Source of the DNA: a virus
Reading direction: 5' to 3' (one strand)
Length of the DNA: 64,000 nucleotides
Virus record (IMG/VR): IMGVR_UViG_3300047322_000556
Coordinates: 25,362-89,361 of that record
A program made the position numbers and the translations under genes. Each line of letters begins with the position of its first letter. The stretch's first letter is position 1. The notes below the pieces were generated by a model, which searched no databases, was not told the origin of the DNA, and worked only from the letters and a program-made list of their open reading frames with translations. Shown here one piece after another: positions 8,717 through 21,681 of the stretch.

Positions 8717-9166
8717 ATGTGGCTCACCTTCTCTGACGCATTCCTCTCCATCGTTTCGATTCCGGGCGACGCCGCGAACCTGAAGGTGCGCGCGCGCCGC
8801 AAGGGCGATATCGAGCGCATCTTCAAGCACTGCGGCGCGGCCGTGAAGGTCGAACGCACGCCGGGCCGTGACTATCTGTATCGCGCGGTGATTCCGCGTG
8901 ACGTCGTCGGCGCGGTCGTGGCCGAGCACGTCGCGGGCATCAGCTATCCGAATTTCAAGAACTCGGTGCGCGACGATCGTCTGCACACGGCATGCAATCG
9001 CGTGTGGCACGTCATGGCCGATCTGCAGGAGATTCCGCCGTATGCGCGCGATCGCCGCCGTGGTCTGTCGCTGTTCGATGAGGCGGATGAATCGACGGGC
9101 TTCGACCCGGTGCCGGTGGTGACGAAGCCGCCGGTCAAGCGCCGCGCGCCCGCACGCAAGTCGTGA
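8717..9166 (+). CDS. conserved-looking hypothetical protein
   Basis: AAGGA RBS; MWLTFSDAFLSIV, LKVRARR, DYLYRA, YPNFK motifs. Confidence 0.8.
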   Translation: MWLTFSDAFLSIVSIPGDAANLKVRARRKGDIERIFKHCGAAVKVERTPGRDYLYRAVIPRDVVGAVVAEHVAGISYPNFKNSVRDDRLHTACNRVWHVMADLQEIPPYARDRRRGLSLFDEADESTGFDPVPVVTKPPVKRRAPARKS

Positions 9167-9175
9167 ATCGATACT
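9160..9175 (+). promoter_or_regulatory. late promoter motif
   Basis: GTCGTGAATCGATACT (one mismatch), overlapping the upstream stop codon. Confidence 0.65.
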
Positions 9176-9200
9176 GATCCCGCATAACTACAAGGCAATC

Positions 9201-10097
9201 ATGGGACTCATTCTCTTCCTCAAGTCGCACATTCCGGGCTACACCAAGAAGGACGGCACTTTCGTCAAGCCGCACGACGACAAGCGCCAGAAGGCCGCGC
9301 AGCCCGCGAAGTGGTCCGGCGCGAAGGCCGCCGAGCACGCGTATTTCGCCGGGGAAGAGAAGGGGCCGAAGGGCTGGCCGTATGCGTCGCAAAAGCCGAT
9401 CGCCTCGAAGCCGAGCGAAGGCGCGAACGCGCATTGGCATCCGAAGCTCGATGACAAGGGCAAACAGGTGCGCGTGCGCTATCCGCATAAGGCGACGGAC
9501 ACGGCGAGCATGCGTCATCCGGACGCGATCGCGACGTTCACGCCGGGCATGGAAAGCATGCCGCACTCGCTCAACGGCGTGCCGTTCAAGGCGTGGATGA
9601 ACGCGCCGACGACGACGGAAGAGTGGGCGAACGTCGCGGGTCAGGTCGATATCGAAGAGCCGCAAATGCAACTGCCCGCGAAAAAGACGGCGGCGTCAGG
9701 CGTGGTCATTGTCGAGCCGGACGGCCGTTACTGGCTCATGGCGCCGACGAATCGCTTCGGTGGGTACCATCAAACCTTTCCGAAGGGCCAAGCCGAGCCC
9801 GAGCTCTCATTGCAGGCGAATGCCATCAAGGAAGCCTACGAAGAGACGGGGCTCAAGGTCGAGATCCTCGGCTTTCTCGGCGACTTCGAAAAGACGACCA
9901 GCGTCGCGCGCTACTACATGGCGAAGCGCGTCGGCGGCACGCCTGCTGATATGGGATGGGAAGCGCAGGCACTTTGCCTCGCGCCGACTGACAAGCTCTA
10001 TTCGCTGCTCAACATGAGCGGCGATCACGCCGTCGCTGAGGCGCTCGGTGCGGGTCCGGCTCCAAAGCCCAAGGCCGCGCCCGGCAAGCTCTTCTGA
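9201..10097 (+). CDS. Nudix hydrolase with N-terminal cargo-type leader
   Basis: Nudix box FPKGQAEPELSLQANAIKEAYEETGL; leader LILFLKSHIPGYTKKDGTFV resembles the N-terminus of the 3662 protein. Confidence 0.88.
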   Translation: MGLILFLKSHIPGYTKKDGTFVKPHDDKRQKAAQPAKWSGAKAAEHAYFAGEEKGPKGWPYASQKPIASKPSEGANAHWHPKLDDKGKQVRVRYPHKATDTASMRHPDAIATFTPGMESMPHSLNGVPFKAWMNAPTTTEEWANVAGQVDIEEPQMQLPAKKTAASGVVIVEPDGRYWLMAPTNRFGGYHQTFPKGQAEPELSLQANAIKEAYEETGLKVEILGFLGDFEKTTSVARYYMAKRVGGTPADMGWEAQALCLAPTDKLYSLLNMSGDHAVAEALGAGPAPKPKAAPGKLF

Positions 10098-16629: not shown

Positions 16630-17792
16630 TGGCGCTCCTGCTCGACATTGGTCCGATCTCGTGTGGCTGCACGAATCACGCGCTGGAGCTCTTTTCGAAG
16701 GCAATGAGCGGTGAGGACGGCTCGGACGAAGGCATCTGGAAGCCGCACGATTCGCCGTTCGTGCGGTATCTGATCGAGCTCTTCACGTCGAAGGGCTTGA
16801 CGATGCTGTCCGACGTGCAGGCCGAGCTCAATGCGTGGATCGAAGGGCAGCGCTATCAGCCGAGCCCGCAGCCGGTCGAGAAGCCGCAGCCGCAGCTCTA
16901 TGCGCAGTGGACGCCCGCCGAAATGGATCTTGTCGAGCTCTACCTATCGAGCCTCTCGCGCATGCAGTTCACGCTCGAAGATTGGGGCTTGCTGATCGAC
17001 TTCCTGATTCAGCGCTATATGCCGCTGTCCGATCTTCAGAAGCAGGCGACGGCGCTCGCCGTGCGCGCCGCGCTCATGGGCAAGGCGCAAAAGATCATCG
17101 AGACGATTCCGGATGATGCGGCCGCGAAGGTGGTCGAGTCCATGCCGCAGAGCTACGCGGAAGCGCGCGAGCTCTTCGGCGGCCAGAAGCTCTTCGACTC
17201 GGTCATGGAATACGGCACGCTGCGCGCGTGCGAGAACGTGCAGCAGTTGAGCGACGAAGTACGCCATCGTATGAAAAGCACGGTGCTCGCGTCGGTGTCG
17301 CAAGCGCAGCAGGGCGACGTGTGGGCGGTCAGTGCGCTCCAGCAAAAGCTGCTCGATGACTTCGCGACGATGAACAGGGATTGGCGTCGCATCGCCGTGA
17401 CCGAAGCCGGTGAGTGCGCGAATCAGGGCTTCATCGCGTCGCTGCCGCTCGGCACGAAGGTCAAGCGCATGGAGATTTATCACGGCGCGTGCTCCTACTG
17501 CCGAAAGATCAACGGTCGTGTGATGACGGTCGTCGCGGCGAACGACCCGAACAAGGACGGCGACACGGACGTGTGGCCGGGCAAGACGAACGTCGGGCGA
17601 TCCAGCGCGCGGCGCAAGCGCGTCGGCGACGAGCTCATCGAGCGCACGCCTGAAGAAATGTGGTGGGTACCGGCGGGCACGGTGCATCCGCATTGCCGGG
17701 GCATCTGGCATGTGCTGCGCAAGATTCAGACGGCGGGCGACGAGAAGTTTACGGCGTGGCTCGCGCAGCATTTGGCGGGTCCGGATAAATAA
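16629..17792 (+). CDS. MuF / SPP1 gp7-like head morphogenesis protein
   Basis: RDWRRIAVTE, CSYC, HPHCRG motifs; follows the portal gene. Confidence 0.85.
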   Translation: MALLLDIGPISCGCTNHALELFSKAMSGEDGSDEGIWKPHDSPFVRYLIELFTSKGLTMLSDVQAELNAWIEGQRYQPSPQPVEKPQPQLYAQWTPAEMDLVELYLSSLSRMQFTLEDWGLLIDFLIQRYMPLSDLQKQATALAVRAALMGKAQKIIETIPDDAAAKVVESMPQSYAEARELFGGQKLFDSVMEYGTLRACENVQQLSDEVRHRMKSTVLASVSQAQQGDVWAVSALQQKLLDDFATMNRDWRRIAVTEAGECANQGFIASLPLGTKVKRMEIYHGACSYCRKINGRVMTVVAANDPNKDGDTDVWPGKTNVGRSSARRKRVGDELIERTPEEMWWVPAGTVHPHCRGIWHVLRKIQTAGDEKFTAWLAQHLAGPDK

Positions 17793-17794
17793 AA

Positions 17795-17847
17795 ACTACC
17801 TACCGGATAAAAAGCACTTGTATCTCCGAGATAAAGTGTTTTAAGAT
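17795..17847 (+). promoter_or_regulatory. promoter with tandem 17-bp operators
   Basis: ACTACC-N5-GATAAA (17795) and TGTATC-N5-GATAAA (17819); TTGTAT-18 nt-TAAGAT. Confidence 0.6.
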
Positions 17848-17887
17848 TGCTCCCACTGAGACGCAGCAAACAACACAGGGGAACGAG

Positions 17888-18034
17888 ATGAAAAACGCAG
17901 ACTTCGGATTCGCGCATCGCAAGGCTTTTCTGGCTGAAACGGCGCGCAGCGTGGCTTCGCGTGTGTTTGGCGCGGCGCTCGGAATCATCATCTGCGGCTC
18001 GATCACTGGTGCGATGCTGGCGGCTCGGGGATAA
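17888..18034 (+). CDS. small membrane protein (48 aa)
   Basis: MKNADFGFAHRK..., C-terminal transmembrane segment, GGGGA RBS; not in the ORF track. Confidence 0.55.
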   Translation: MKNADFGFAHRKAFLAETARSVASRVFGAALGIIICGSITGAMLAARG

Positions 18035-18088
18035 ATCTACCGGGTAAAGTCGGTGCAACTCCATCTCTTCACGAAGGAAATTAGTCGC

Positions 18089-18502
18089 ATGGGTTTCGTT
18101 TCTGCAATTGAGCTGCAAAAGCCGATCGTTCGCAATCGCATCAAGAAGGGCGTCGCGATTTCGACCATCCGCAACAATGACGAGGCGTATCTTCAGGTGC
18201 GCATCGACAACGAGACGCTGAAGGAAGCGCGCTTGTTCGTCGGCGATCGCCTCGATGTGCTGTTCGATAAGGAAGGCCGCCTCGGGCTCGTCAAGCGCGT
18301 GAAAGAGGGCGGCTGGCAGTTGACGACGGCAGGCGATAAGGCGGGCCGTGTTCGCGTGCGTTGGGCTCCGGGTCTGCCGCATACGAGCGAGTTTGTCGAA
18401 ATTTTTGACGTGACGGCCGATGAAACTGAGGGCGTCATGTTCCAGTTGCCCGAAGCTGTGACTTTCGTCGGCTCGCCGAAGTTTTCGGAAGCCAAGGCAT
18501 GA
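18089..18502 (+). CDS. hypothetical beta-rich protein (AbrB-like appearance)
   Basis: AAGGA RBS; LQVRIDNETLKEARLFVGDRLDVLFD. Confidence 0.7.
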   Translation: MGFVSAIELQKPIVRNRIKKGVAISTIRNNDEAYLQVRIDNETLKEARLFVGDRLDVLFDKEGRLGLVKRVKEGGWQLTTAGDKAGRVRVRWAPGLPHTSEFVEIFDVTADETEGVMFQLPEAVTFVGSPKFSEAKA

Positions 18503-18765
18503 AGCGCATGGCTGTTGCGGCGATTCTCGCGATCGTTACTGCGACTGCGCTTGCGAAGGGCGGCGGCGGCGGTGGTCACGGTGGTGGTGGCGGTCATGCG
18601 AGCGCAAGCGCGCATCCTTCCGCCTCGGCGCATCCGGTGACGTCCGCGCACGCTGTCGAGTCGCCCGCGCCGCATGCTTCGACGTCGTCGGGCAGTCGTC
18701 CTTTCTCTTGGTTCTTCGGTGGATCAAGAGGCTGCGACAAGTCGAAGCAGCAGGATTGCAAGTGA
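18499..18765 (+). CDS. small secreted Gly/His/Ser-rich protein
   Basis: Signal peptide MKRMAVAAILAIVTATALA, poly-Gly tract, terminal Cys pair. Confidence 0.7.
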   Translation: MKRMAVAAILAIVTATALAKGGGGGGHGGGGGHASASAHPSASAHPVTSAHAVESPAPHASTSSGSRPFSWFFGGSRGCDKSKQQDCK

Positions 18766-18769
18766 TTCC

Positions 18770-19779
18770 TGTGAAGAGGGAGAGTCGCCGGACTTAAATC
18801 GGGGAGTGGCTCGCCTAACGAGCCGCCTCAGAAGAGCGGCCCGCCGTCGTCGCGCCGACGTAAAAGTGGCCGTAGCTCCGTATGTCGATAGGCAAGGGTC
18901 TTTAGCTCGCGTTTGAGCCCTTTCCGTACACAGGGCCGCTCTTCTGAGGTTGCGCGTGGTGTGCAAAGCCGCGCGCGAGCTTCGAATGACTGGCGTAACC
19001 AGTTGGGCCGCCGACCGGCGGTGAGGGGCGCAAGTCGCTTCACCGTCAGCCCGGCAACGAATTCTTCCTACGGGTACTCGCGCGAGCGAGTTTGGAATGC
19101 TGGCAGATATCCCGTTGAATGATCCAGCCCCCGGCGATGCGGGTGTAATCATCAGGTGGCCGTCACCATGAGCATCGTTAATCCTCGGCCGCGTGGCTCC
19201 CGTAAGGAGCCGCCCGCAAAGCGCATTCGCTGAGTGCTCTTTGCGGGTCTGGATGACTACCTTTCAAGACGGACCCTGTAAATGTCCACGAAGGCGCGAT
19301 CAGCTCTGCGTTACATGCGACGACTGACTGCCGTAAGCAGTCATCTCACGCGAAGCATTTGGGTCGGTGCCACCAGCAGTATGCCGATCTCCCCGACCGA
19401 TCAGCGCGAACACGTCATCGGTTCAAATGCTTCGACGTGAGATTAAGCGGTCGCAGCCGCTCGGAAACGTCGCGAGACGCTCCTGACTGCCGGGAAAGTA
19501 CCGGCCCAATTTTGTGTGACCCGCGATGTTGGGAACTACGACCGTAGCCTCGGCGGCCCTTTCGGGGGATAAACGAGGACGAGGATTAGCAGGCGAGTGC
19601 CTCGGCAGCAAAACCCTTGCAGCACAGCACGACTATCCTAACCGCCGTTTCGCTCTAGCTTCGAGCGCGGTCGTCGGGGCTGATCGACGCGAGAGACGAG
19701 AACGGCGTCGCGCGTTCGTTTGCCGAGTGGCTCCCGTAAGGGGCCATGCCCGACTTGCCGCCGTAAGTGGCAGCCCTTC
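18770..19779 (+). ncRNA. candidate large structured non-coding RNA(s)
   Basis: No credible CDS; dense hairpins, six C[GC]TAA pentaloops, GNRA/UUCG tetraloops and long-range stems; abuts tRNA-Tyr. Confidence 0.65.
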
Positions 19780-19866
19780 GCGTGGGTAGTCCCGTAACGG
19801 TATCGGGGGGAGACTGTAAATCTCTTGCCTTCGGCCTTGGTGGTTCGAATCCATCGCCACGCACCA
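19780..19866 (+). tRNA. tRNA-Tyr (GTA)
   Basis: Acceptor GCGTGGG/GCCACGC, anticodon arm GGAGA-CTGTAAA-TCTCT, long variable arm, GGTGG-TTCGAAT-CCATC T arm, encoded ACCA. Confidence 0.92.
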
Positions 19867-19882
19867 TATTTTCGGAGTCTGA

Positions 19883-20371
19883 ATGTCTCGTCGCGTCAAG
19901 CTGGTGCTGCTCGGTGTGGTCGTGTTCATCGCGATCGCGATTCTCTTCTCGTCGTGCAGCTCGCGCGAGTACTCGACGGCATACGCGCCGCAATATGCGC
20001 CGCCGGTCGTCGCGCAAGCGCCGATCATTCAGCCCGCGCCGATCGTCCAAGCTGCGCCGGTCGTCGTGCAGCAAAACGACGGCTTCATTCATGGCCTTCT
20101 GCTCGGGCACATGATGAGCGGCGGCGGCAGTCATTCGGTCGTCCATCACTACGATGCGCCGCGCCCGGCATACGTCGCGCCGCGCACGACAGTCGTCAAT
20201 AACACGACCGTCATCAATCGCCCGGCCGCGCCCGCATACGTGCCGCCAAAGCCCGCTTACGTCTCTCCGAGGCCCGCATACGTCGCGCCGCGCGCAACGT
20301 CCTACGCGGGCTCCTATGCGTCGCGATCGAGCTATTCGTCCGTGACGTCGCGCGCAGTCTCACGCCGGTAA
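19883..20371 (+). CDS. membrane-anchored or lipoprotein-like Pro-rich protein
   Basis: N-terminal hydrophobic segment ending FSSC; (R)PAYV repeats; GGAG RBS. Confidence 0.75.
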   Translation: MSRRVKLVLLGVVVFIAIAILFSSCSSREYSTAYAPQYAPPVVAQAPIIQPAPIVQAAPVVVQQNDGFIHGLLLGHMMSGGGSHSVVHHYDAPRPAYVAPRTTVVNNTTVINRPAAPAYVPPKPAYVSPRPAYVAPRATSYAGSYASRSSYSSVTSRAVSRR

Positions 20372-20388
20372 CGCTCAAGGGGCATCGC

Positions 20389-20508
20389 ATGTACATGACC
20401 GATCTATTCGAAAGCCTGAGCATGTGTATGAACGCCTACGCGCGCGCCGCGTGGCTGTGGTCGATCGAACTGGATCGGCTTTCGGCGATGTGCTCGACGC
20501 GCAAGTAG
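20389..20508 (+). CDS. small hypothetical protein
   Basis: MYMTDLFESL..., AAGGGG RBS. Confidence 0.35.
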   Translation: MYMTDLFESLSMCMNAYARAAWLWSIELDRLSAMCSTRK

Positions 20509-20670
20509 GGCTCTGACGTATCGCGCCGGGTGTCGTTCAGCGCGTAACAGGGGTGGACTTCAGTGATGACCCGACCCGGCGCGATACGCGAGAGTCCAAT
20601 GCAAGGGTAAGAGCGGGTGAGTGCATCAATATCCCGCCGCTCTCAACCCAATTTCAACGAAGGAGCCGAT

Positions 20671-21069
20671 ATGTCGGACGTGCAAGACAACACCGCAGCG
20701 CAAGACGCTGATATCGAACAAGCCGCGCAAGCCGTGGATCAAGCCGCCGCGACGGAAGTGTCCGCAAGCGACGAACCGGCTGTGACGGCTGACGCATCGG
20801 CTGAAGTGCCGGTCGATACGGCGCCGGACGCTCAAGCGCCCGCGACCGATGCTGACGTCGGCGAAGCTGCCGATGCGGCGAAGGACGATGGCGACGCCCT
20901 GGCGGGCGATGTGCTCGACGCGGCCGAAGAGCTGATCCATCCGGCAGTCGGCGAGCTGAACACGCTGCGCGCGACGATCCGCGCCGAGCTCAATGCGATT
21001 CTGACGGGCATCAAGACGCGCGTGCATAACGGCGAAGCGCATCTCGAAGCGCTGATCTCGCGCCTGTGA
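20671..21069 (+). CDS. acidic low-complexity hypothetical protein
   Basis: AAGGAG RBS; Asp/Ala-rich N-terminus, helical C-terminus. Confidence 0.75.
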   Translation: MSDVQDNTAAQDADIEQAAQAVDQAAATEVSASDEPAVTADASAEVPVDTAPDAQAPATDADVGEAADAAKDDGDALAGDVLDAAEELIHPAVGELNTLRATIRAELNAILTGIKTRVHNGEAHLEALISRL

Positions 21070-21160: not shown

Positions 21161-21184
21161 GGCCGCCCTAAGCGGCCTTTTTTT
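21161..21184 (+). terminator. intrinsic terminator
   Basis: GGCCGC-CCTAA-GCGGCC followed by a T tract. Confidence 0.75.
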
Positions 21185-21195
21185 ACGACTATGGG

Positions 21196-21681
21196 GTGAC
21201 GATGTTTATTCGAAGTGTGCTCGCCGAGATAGGCGCGTATTACGGCACTCGGCGCGGCGTGGGGCATACGACGTGCGCTCTGCGCGGCATGGGCGAGCGT
21301 GTCGAGGCGGCGACGATCAAGCCGCTCATGGTGGTCGGCACGCATCAGCACGGCCGCATCATGGCCGGTCAGATCGGCCGCAATTTCACGACGCTCGGAA
21401 ATATTGAAGGCGGGGCGCTGCGCGGTATCGACCGGCCGCTCGTGTGGGATAACCATGCGATCGCGCTGCTGGCGATGAATTCGTCGCAGGAGATTGAGCG
21501 CGCCGAGCGGGAAAAGTTGGACGCGCTCGCGATGGCCGAGCGAACGCGCATGGATCTAGTTTCGGCGCGTCGTGAGCTCGTGGCCGTCGAACAGAAGTGC
21601 GCCGAGCTGCGCGACGAACTCGCGACGGCGCGCGCGAACGCGGCGAAAGCCACGTTCACGAAAAAGCGCGGAAAGCGCTGA
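21196..21681 (+). CDS. hypothetical protein with C-terminal coiled coil
   Basis: 161-aa ORF with typical codon usage. Confidence 0.65.
   Translation: MTMFIRSVLAEIGAYYGTRRGVGHTTCALRGMGERVEAATIKPLMVVGTHQHGRIMAGQIGRNFTTLGNIEGGALRGIDRPLVWDNHAIALLAMNSSQEIERAEREKLDALAMAERTRMDLVSARRELVAVEQKCAELRDELATARANAAKATFTKKRGKR

Follow-up and report, generated by a model that had tools for sequence, protein, structure and literature searches.

A structured non-coding RNA locus ahead of a phage tRNA-Tyr gene, probably a mosaic of separately evolving small RNA modules

The transfer RNA (tRNA) cluster of phage T4 includes small stable non-tRNA RNAs that are co-transcribed with the tRNAs and presumably matured by the host tRNA-processing enzymes. 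The RNAs GOLLD and ROOL are ornate, extend over hundreds of nucleotides (nt), are often carried by phages or prophages and lie near tRNA genes, and co-transcription with tRNAs has been suggested for them, according to PMC5737381. We have analyzed here a locus that recalls both systems, in a window of 64,000 nt that forms the last 64 kb of an 89,361-base pair (bp) IMG/VR virus record with a CheckV completeness of 97%. Positions 18766-19866 of the window, on the + strand, are read here as an island of phage non-coding RNA in which at least four or five structured modules, evolving separately, form a mosaic that ends in tRNA-Tyr and would be transcribed as one precursor and processed to small RNAs; we put the probability of this reading at roughly 0.6. 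Like GOLLD and ROOL, the stretch is ornate, lies in a virus record and has tRNA-Tyr directly downstream, but it is without a conserved large architecture and offers only modules of about 110 nt and about 90 nt in variable order. The likeness to the T4 cluster, one of kind, lies in structured non-tRNA RNAs placed in the same orientation among phage tRNA genes, although the pseudoknot described below, unlike the T4 cluster RNAs, is common to Burkholderia, Stenotrophomonas and Xanthomonas phages and to contigs of Acidobacteria metagenome-assembled genomes (MAGs). The locus is a new combination of a known family (Proteo-phage-1 RNA), a well-supported pseudoknot motif that is absent from Rfam, and a recurrent hairpin with a five-base loop, which we refer to as the pentaloop hairpin.

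The stretch is not protein-coding, and its helices are maintained by selection. It sits between a small + strand open reading frame (ORF) at 18499-18765 and tRNA-Tyr(GUA), the sole tRNA in the window, and a coding signal is absent on the + strand throughout 18766-19779. Curves of G+C content by codon position are flat between about 18800 and 19760, where the difference between maximum and minimum is mostly at or below 0.13 (0.24 in one window), compared with 0.3-0.5 in the flanking genes. A sequence-only reading of this DNA, made without database searches, had proposed a non-coding structured stretch ahead of tRNA-Tyr, and most of the stems that it listed are present. The 17-bp stem 18826-18842/18933-18949 and the hairpin 19213-19247 are recovered as inverted repeats, as is the perfect core (19351-19361/19424-19434) of the bulged stem placed at 19343-19361/19424-19443, and the loops GCAA (19030-19033), GCGA (near 19082 and 19472) and UUUCG (near 19561) can be read in the sequence. 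Of its two nested stems, 19643/19707 falls within a hairpin domain at 19625-19726, whereas 19601/19727 is doubtful because its bases belong to the second Proteo-phage-1 hairpin in the Rfam alignment. The same reading took the stretch to be the largest gap without a credible coding sequence, which holds only roughly: a crude filter on G+C at third codon positions (GC3) picks out three other low-GC3 stretches of 1.1-1.35 kb, each overlapping a long ORF. Minimum-free-energy (MFE) folding against dinucleotide shuffles gives z-scores of -3.6 (18800-18949), -2.8 (19100-19324) and -4.1 (19325-19474), with flanking coding windows mostly between -1.3 and +1.9, and the whole stretch folds 28 kcal/mol better on the + strand (-463.4 kcal/mol) than on the - strand (-435.5 kcal/mol).

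Compensatory changes among homologs were found in the region of the 17-bp stem, in the pseudoknot and in the 3' extension of Proteo-phage-1. Those in the 5' half come from a viral contig (L033/L137) that is about 80% identical over 18766-19063 and ends near the equivalent of position 19240. It is among the four viral loci found with the 387-residue upstream protein, together with L032 and two that are too distant to align; metagenome contigs gave no match to this protein. L032 is identical across the whole RNA and therefore uninformative on covariation. Four DNA runs yielded only contigs identical to the window and short unrelated pieces, with no natural variants, and an exact 18-letter word from 19017-19034 matched only the two known relatives and three chance sites in coding DNA. 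Identity to L033 is 85% in the non-coding part and 91% across 18766-18842, against 67% at the nucleotide level in the upstream ORF, and the conserved non-coding block opens with a leader containing a purine-rich run (18766-18805). Five base-pair changes between L033 and the window are fully compensatory. In the 17-bp stem, which with the 90-nt variable domain that it encloses occupies 18826-18949 (z = -3.6), three adjacent pairs are replaced on both strands (18831-18833 with 18942-18944), and insertions or deletions of 2, 6, 10 and 5 nt within 18843-18932 read as frame-breaking. A 10-bp hairpin follows at 18950-18979, where G>A at 18956 is compensated by C>U at 18972, so that G-C becomes A-U, and U>C at 18951 converts a G-U pair to G-C. 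The closing pair 18993/18999 of the second pentaloop hairpin flips from G-C to C-G with its CGUAA loop kept, and two further differences turn or keep wobble pairs. The last part common to L033/L137 is a branched helix with a GCAA-capped hairpin (19006-19063), which is near-identical in that relative. Conservation and compensatory changes thus support a structured non-coding RNA locus beside tRNA-Tyr.

The best-supported single element is the conserved pseudoknot motif at 19244-19300 on the + strand. When compared by blastn with phage genomes, 19194-19351 matches Burkholderia phage Mica at 73%, in a gap without annotation that separates the integrase gene from a pseudo-tRNA, and 19246-19294 matches Stenotrophomonas phages Piffle and Paxi and Xanthomonas phage PB119 at 86%, the Piffle match lying inside a 930-nt gap within the tRNA array. 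Pattern scans of viral, genome and metagenome contigs produced 59 instances that reduce to 39 distinct sequences, with sources including Caballeronia pedi, a Herbaspirillum MAG (two copies), an Aquaspirillum MAG and two Acidobacteria MAGs; L020, L025 and L026 were left out as chance matches in which only the pattern aligned, and L050 because it is cut by the contig end. The 5' part of the core consists of one variable base, GGUCUG, GAUG(A/G), the variable 5' strand, CAAGA and CGGACC, after which come a variable base, a free spacer of two or three bases, UAAAUGUC, roughly four more bases and the variable 3' strand. A helix that we call P1 (19245-19251/19270-19276) is crossed by a variable stem (about 19260-19264/19290-19294), the loops are invariant, and 26 alignment columns are invariant among the 39 distinct copies. 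The variable stem changes on both sides at all seven of its pairs, the covariation score of the pseudoknot is reached by none of 500 shuffles, and sliding the partner columns as a control drops pairing from 85% to 22-51%. Because the covarying stem includes G-U pairs, the fold is assigned to the + strand. P1 (GGUCUG/CGGACC) is nearly invariant, with an outermost pair that is G-C in 28 copies, A-U in six and G-U in one. As judged from these aligned copies, the motif is a pseudoknot with conserved joining loops. A long hairpin (19214-19247) abuts it on the 5' side, was recovered as an inverted repeat and co-varies on both strands across homologs when the alignment is read by eye. Our covariance model finds one match in the window (68.8 bits; the next best has 10.3 bits and an expectation value, E, of 0.16) and one copy in the full 89-kb genome, and a comparison of 19185-19320 with Rfam 15 at E up to 10 returned no family of substance.

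Two other foldings of this region were set aside. A local hairpin GGAC/GUCC with a 9-nt loop was favored at first, but its closing base varies freely (C, U, G or A), while covariation links the position preceding GGUCUG to the one following GGACC, in favor of P1. A tRNA reading of 19242-19321 is offered by ARAGORN only at -ps75, has no Rfam tRNA match and conflicts with the covarying stem. Columns 13 and 54 of the alignment may also form a tertiary pair: A stands with G in 29 copies, G with C in six and other combinations in four.

Among the 21 pseudoknot loci examined for neighbors, 11 have a tRNA within 2 kb, always on the same strand, and in seven tRNA-Tyr is among these tRNAs; in L031 the pseudoknot begins directly after tRNA-Tyr. 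The loci have no common protein neighbor, as the search gave only three clusters of three loci each, one of them SSB. On a 131-kb contig of a Candidatus Acidiferrales MAG (L015), tRNA-Met (+93), tRNA-Asp (+838) and transfer-messenger RNA (tmRNA; +1268) come after the pseudoknot, all of them on its strand. Small riboswitch aptamers and self-cleaving ribozymes resemble the pseudoknot in kind only, through its size of about 55 nt, its two crossing helices and its invariant P1 and joining loops; unlike riboswitches, it does not stand consistently ahead of any gene, and its variable stem has no fixed sequence with which to hide a ribosome-binding site. With about 26 bases invariant across distant hosts, the pseudoknot most likely binds something universal or acts on itself. 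Strings of the motif gave only unrelated primer matches in the literature, and the pseudoknot was not found in the literature on small stable RNAs in phage tRNA clusters. A 2023 study of IMG/VR collected 10,006 candidate structured RNAs of viruses and phages and reports tRNA-like and tRNA-overlapping candidates (PMC10690425), and its supplements may already list the pseudoknot or the pentaloop hairpin.

The second module that reaches beyond close kin is a known RNA. Proteo-phage-1 RNA (Rfam RF03044) matches 19542-19624 on the + strand with 57.6 bits (gathering score 42, E 8.9e-08) over positions 1-82 of the 82-position model, and is the sole above-threshold Rfam 15 match of the window. It has two hairpins, the second with a conserved 15-nt loop, and an A-rich tail ending in GCAGC, features shared with the copy in a Caballeronia prophage (L007). 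Rfam classes the family as a small RNA (sRNA) gene, and it is known from phages and prophages of Proteobacteria; the contig that carries it here is a virus record, 97% complete, with a portal gene similar to those in Pseudomonas phages Jeremy and Dolphis. The suggestion of an undescribed class, made from sequence alone, is thus lost for 19542-19624, whereas it stands for the pseudoknot and the pentaloop hairpin, for which Rfam holds no family. 'Proteo-phage-1' was found in no searchable literature full text, and the RNA is absent from the main-text discussion of the 224-motif paper (PMC5737381).

The 82-nt Rfam model apparently describes just the 5' portion of the RNA as it occurs in nature. 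In many loci of a Pseudomonas type a pentaloop hairpin lies about 95 nt after Proteo-phage-1, and in an alignment of 20 such loci (L084:1134-1328 and 19 similar ones) this hairpin changes on both sides at four of its five pairs, and another covarying hairpin lies ahead of it, after the Rfam motif. These two extra hairpins are followed by a long stem whose start reads GCAUCGGAG. The covarying downstream hairpins of the 20 loci therefore suggest that the natural RNA exceeds the Rfam model by some 100 nt or more. In the window, 19542-19773 looks like a diverged copy of the extended form, and the hairpin domain at 19625-19726 would correspond to the covarying hairpin of the Pseudomonas-type loci, an analogy of position and not an alignment. 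Pattern matching alone gave 63 other loci for Proteo-phage-1, about one third of them judged by eye to be chance matches. One of the 63 has a same-strand tRNA within 1.5 kb and is apparently a chance match in coding sequence, and the cluster of pentaloop hairpins is present in none. Elsewhere, then, Proteo-phage-1 occurs mostly without the other modules, whereas the window copy is embedded in the RNA island 155 nt upstream of the tRNA. In Pseudomonas phage PS-1 (L133, record 8901-9250), the extended form fills an unannotated 440-nt gap in an operon on its own strand, which leads from the gene of a transcriptional regulator to those of endonuclease and Bet.

Between 18806 and 19773 the + strand carries six pentaloop hairpins with stems of 7-8 bp, five with the loop CGUAA and one with CCUAA. 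The remaining 63 kb of the window hold one more, and the - strand none. A short single-stranded lead, conserved as CGA, one free base and U, introduces the element, whose loop has the form C-G/C-U-A/U-A on differing stems; 0-6 nt downstream of each of the six a longer helix starts or, for the last, the tRNA acceptor stem. The first (18806-18826, 8-bp stem, CCUAA) is identical in L033, and the second (18987-19005, 7-bp stem, CGUAA) is the one with the flipped closing pair. The third (19193-19213, 8-bp stem, CGUAA) forms the first part of a Burkholderiales-type pseudoknot module, and a hairpin with a differing stem and the same loop precedes the pseudoknot in six loci (Mica, L004, L007, L016, L017 and L027). 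Mica has a homolog of the fourth (19325-19343, 7-bp stem, CGUAA) after its pseudoknot. The fifth (19727-19747, 8-bp stem, CGUAA) is of the type that follows Proteo-phage-1 in the 20 aligned loci, and the sixth (19755-19773, 7-bp stem, CGUAA), which lies 6 nt before the tRNA, has a 96% match to a hairpin of L007. The sole other copy (21161-21177) has a 6-bp G+C stem, a CCUAA loop, a 'gacu'-like lead and six U directly after it, and looks like an intrinsic terminator between the ORFs 20617-21069 and 21196-21681.

Whether these elements form one RNA or several can be judged from their arrangement in relatives. Beyond close kin, only 19186-19300 (about 110 nt) and 19538-19630 (about 90 nt) have relatives. 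In the Caballeronia prophage, Proteo-phage-1 lies about 690 nt upstream of the pseudoknot, reverse of the window order, and the sequence there is Proteo-phage-1, a pentaloop hairpin with a long stem, two T-arm-like hairpins, a pentaloop hairpin and the pseudoknot. The L033/L137 contig keeps 18766-19063, diverges from 19064 and then has the T-arm-like module of L007, and the window segment at that place (19064-19185) is lineage-specific, with no blastn match in the collected loci except in a near-identical contig. Two contigs from one Herbaspirillum frisingense MAG (L016 and L017) carry two pseudoknot copies whose flanks are 84-97% identical at different offsets, and modules have therefore been shuffled. 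The nearest ORFs of at least 70 residues around the pseudoknot are only about 150-230 nt apart in some loci, such as L010, L056 and L060, according to crude ORF calls. The other orders and combinations in relatives thus speak for several small RNAs in an array and against a single giant one, and of the two forms that the sequence-only reading left open, a large non-coding RNA or a cluster of smaller ones, the cluster fits better. Portable modules are a better fit than a fixed 1-kb architecture, and the modules of this phage may still act together. The T-arm-like module itself (L007:7972-8100 and, on the reverse strand, the last 130 nt or so of L137) has two hairpins with GGUUCGAUUCC-type loops, each followed by an acceptor-like strand; it scores a weak 19.3 bits against the tRNA-Sec model, ARAGORN calls no tRNA in it, and it may have degenerated from a tRNA or may mimic one.

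Several observations weigh against an array processed from one precursor. The MFE fold of the whole stretch contains long-range pairs, and a 23-nt repeat that is 78% complementary joins 19179-19201 to 19566-19588, so that in this lineage the stretch may fold as a single unit. A consensus scan found no promoter-like site in 17700-20500, and the sole terminator-like site (19489-19505) is within chance expectation. Covariation for 18766-19063 comes from one relative only, the segments 19064-19185, 19444-19541 and 19625-19726 are without covariation support, and in the pseudoknot a single P1 pair is tested by covariation because P1 is almost invariant. The 3' third (19475-19850) gives no thermodynamic signal (z about 0); this part holds a curated RNA and a tRNA, and the z-score is therefore an insensitive test here. 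Finally, a look for RNA runs that include 18600-20000 turned up none, and we infer the transcription, the RNA ends and the processing of the island from its sequence.

The long-range pairs would be expected if the stretch were one ornate RNA of about 1 kb acting as a unit in the manner of GOLLD and ROOL, with the pseudoknot as its core, fast-evolving helices at the periphery and CGUAA loops that make tertiary or multimer contacts. We consider this unlikely. Size and tRNA adjacency do match these RNAs as PMC5737381 describes them, annotation-free gaps around the pseudoknot measure about 500 nt in Mica and some 930 nt in Piffle and, by our own reading of the sequence, exceed 1.2 kb in L007, and the six identical or near-identical loops on differing stems could be repeated docking elements. 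However, the order of modules differs between the window and L007, the 80% relative swaps a module at 19064, some pseudoknot loci leave only about 150-230 nt between ORFs, and Proteo-phage-1 is mostly found alone. Membership in GOLLD or ROOL, the RNAs with which the stretch had been compared, finds no backing either: Rfam scans of 18400-20100 and 19185-19320 at E up to 10 returned no GOLLD, ROOL, group I or II intron, RNase P RNA, 6S, tmRNA, riboswitch, ribozyme or CRISPR-repeat model, and only weak matches (12.6-14.7 bits) to microRNA models and a lambda thermoregulator. Possible likenesses to group I intron cores, hepatitis delta virus (HDV)-like folds, guanidine-III, pistol, CRISPR repeats, nut/boxB and Y RNAs likewise had no Rfam match. 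It is decidedly unlikely that the modules are cis-acting elements of the + strand operon and not free small RNAs, whether they stabilize the long messenger RNA or, like the put RNAs of phage HK022, render RNA polymerase terminator-resistant. The island does lie among consecutive + strand ORFs, no promoter-like site was found near it, and a hairpin of the same type with a U-run stands between two downstream genes (21161-21177). In PS-1, the extended Proteo-phage-1 is inside a same-strand operon ahead of the endonuclease and Bet genes, at a place comparable to that of the antitermination sites of lambdoid phages, and this position therefore keeps a cis-acting role in antitermination or stability alive as a rival. 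Against it, the pseudoknot occurs within tRNA arrays of lytic phages with no ORF directly downstream, no tie to a particular gene was found among its loci, and the Rfam class of Proteo-phage-1 is that of an sRNA gene.

Phages carry RNA decoys of host and defense RNA substrates, and the modules could be mimics of this sort, which soak up nucleases or Cas proteins by resembling parts of tRNAs or the hairpins of CRISPR repeats. The association with tRNAs, often tRNA-Tyr (seven of 21 loci), the T-arm-like hairpins of L007 and L137, and the resemblance of repeated short hairpins with fixed loops to protein-binding repeats are all compatible with this, as is the weak tRNA-Tyr-like fold that ARAGORN reads in the pseudoknot region at a relaxed threshold. 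That fold clashes with the covarying stem, though, its 'anticodon' positions vary among homologs, and neither the hairpins nor the pseudoknot match any Rfam CRISPR repeat family or tRNA model, so that we regard decoys as improbable. Scarcely credible is a degenerate or unannotated coding sequence whose stems are by-products of high G+C content: + strand ORFs of 44-87 residues can be drawn, but the codon-position GC signal is lacking, the relative has frame-breaking insertions and deletions with helices kept by compensatory changes, the stretch is conserved better than the neighboring real gene, and part of it is a curated RNA family.

Returning to the processed array, transcription of the upstream + strand genes would continue across the island and give a single precursor. 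Host nucleases that mature tRNA and ribosomal RNA would cut it, RNase P at tRNA-Tyr and RNase III at the two long stems of 17 and 19 bp. The long stems that enclose domains of 60-90 nt resemble processing stems, and cutting would yield several stable small RNAs of about 80-250 nt. The second such stem, a 19-bp bulged stem around about 60 nt (19343-19443, z = -4.1), was found as an inverted repeat, and its first part aligns with Mica. The pentaloop hairpins may be punctuation where units meet, serving either in end protection or as a recognition site for a processing or binding factor. A bolder proposal, which we regard as unlikely, makes the pseudoknot a new class of functional RNA. It would cleave or process itself as a ribozyme, or else serve as an aptamer or decoy for a cell component that is conserved universally, and phages of Proteobacteria and probably Acidobacteria would insert it into tRNA and small-RNA arrays, with the C(G/C)UAA hairpin as dedicated punctuation for a specific factor and the island as a programmed 'RNA operon'.

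The surroundings of the island add some observations. The G+C content of the window is about 62%. tRNA-Tyr (19780-19866, + strand, with a long variable arm and encoded CCA) is supported by ARAGORN, Rfam and blastn matches to annotated phage tRNA-Tyr genes. ARAGORN places it at 19784-19866 and the Rfam tRNA-Sec model aligns to 19780-19862 with 29.8 bits, under its threshold, so that the two disagree by 4 nt on the 5' end (19784 versus 19780); with the start at 19780 the acceptor stem has a G-G mismatch at the seventh pair. The general Rfam tRNA model stays below threshold for this tRNA in a whole-window scan, as it does for the tRNA-Tyr of phage Piffle. A permuted two-piece tmRNA at 19514-19866, which ARAGORN reports only at -ps75, was rejected: it re-uses the 3' half of tRNA-Tyr, is given as 'Tag not identified' and has no Rfam tmRNA match. 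The terminator-like hairpin and the U-run after it occupy 19489-19515 on the + strand, and the consensus scan counts no more such sites than shuffled sequences contain. The protein of ORF 18499-18765 has a hydrophobic N-terminus and repeats rich in Gly, His, Ala and Ser, and the ORF diverges fast, with in-frame insertions and deletions in L033, unlike the adjoining RNA. Downstream of the tRNA, the + strand of the gap 20372-20620, which separates ORF 19883-20371 from ORF 20617-21069, has strong structure (MFE -115.2 kcal/mol, z = -3.89, with none of 200 shuffles folding as well) and includes a long, nearly perfect hairpin at about 20515-20590, the 150-nt window 20450-20599 having z = -5.85.

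The tRNA regions of phages are usually annotated as tRNAs with empty spacers between them, and here the spacer instead holds several RNAs under selection. Conservation as strong as that of the pseudoknot in so small an RNA usually marks catalysis or the binding of a universal partner. The pentaloop hairpin links two otherwise unrelated RNA families and provides a testable handle on the maturation of phage multi-RNA precursors, and cultured carriers, namely Burkholderia phage Mica, Stenotrophomonas phages Piffle and Paxi and Pseudomonas phage PS-1, make such experiments feasible.

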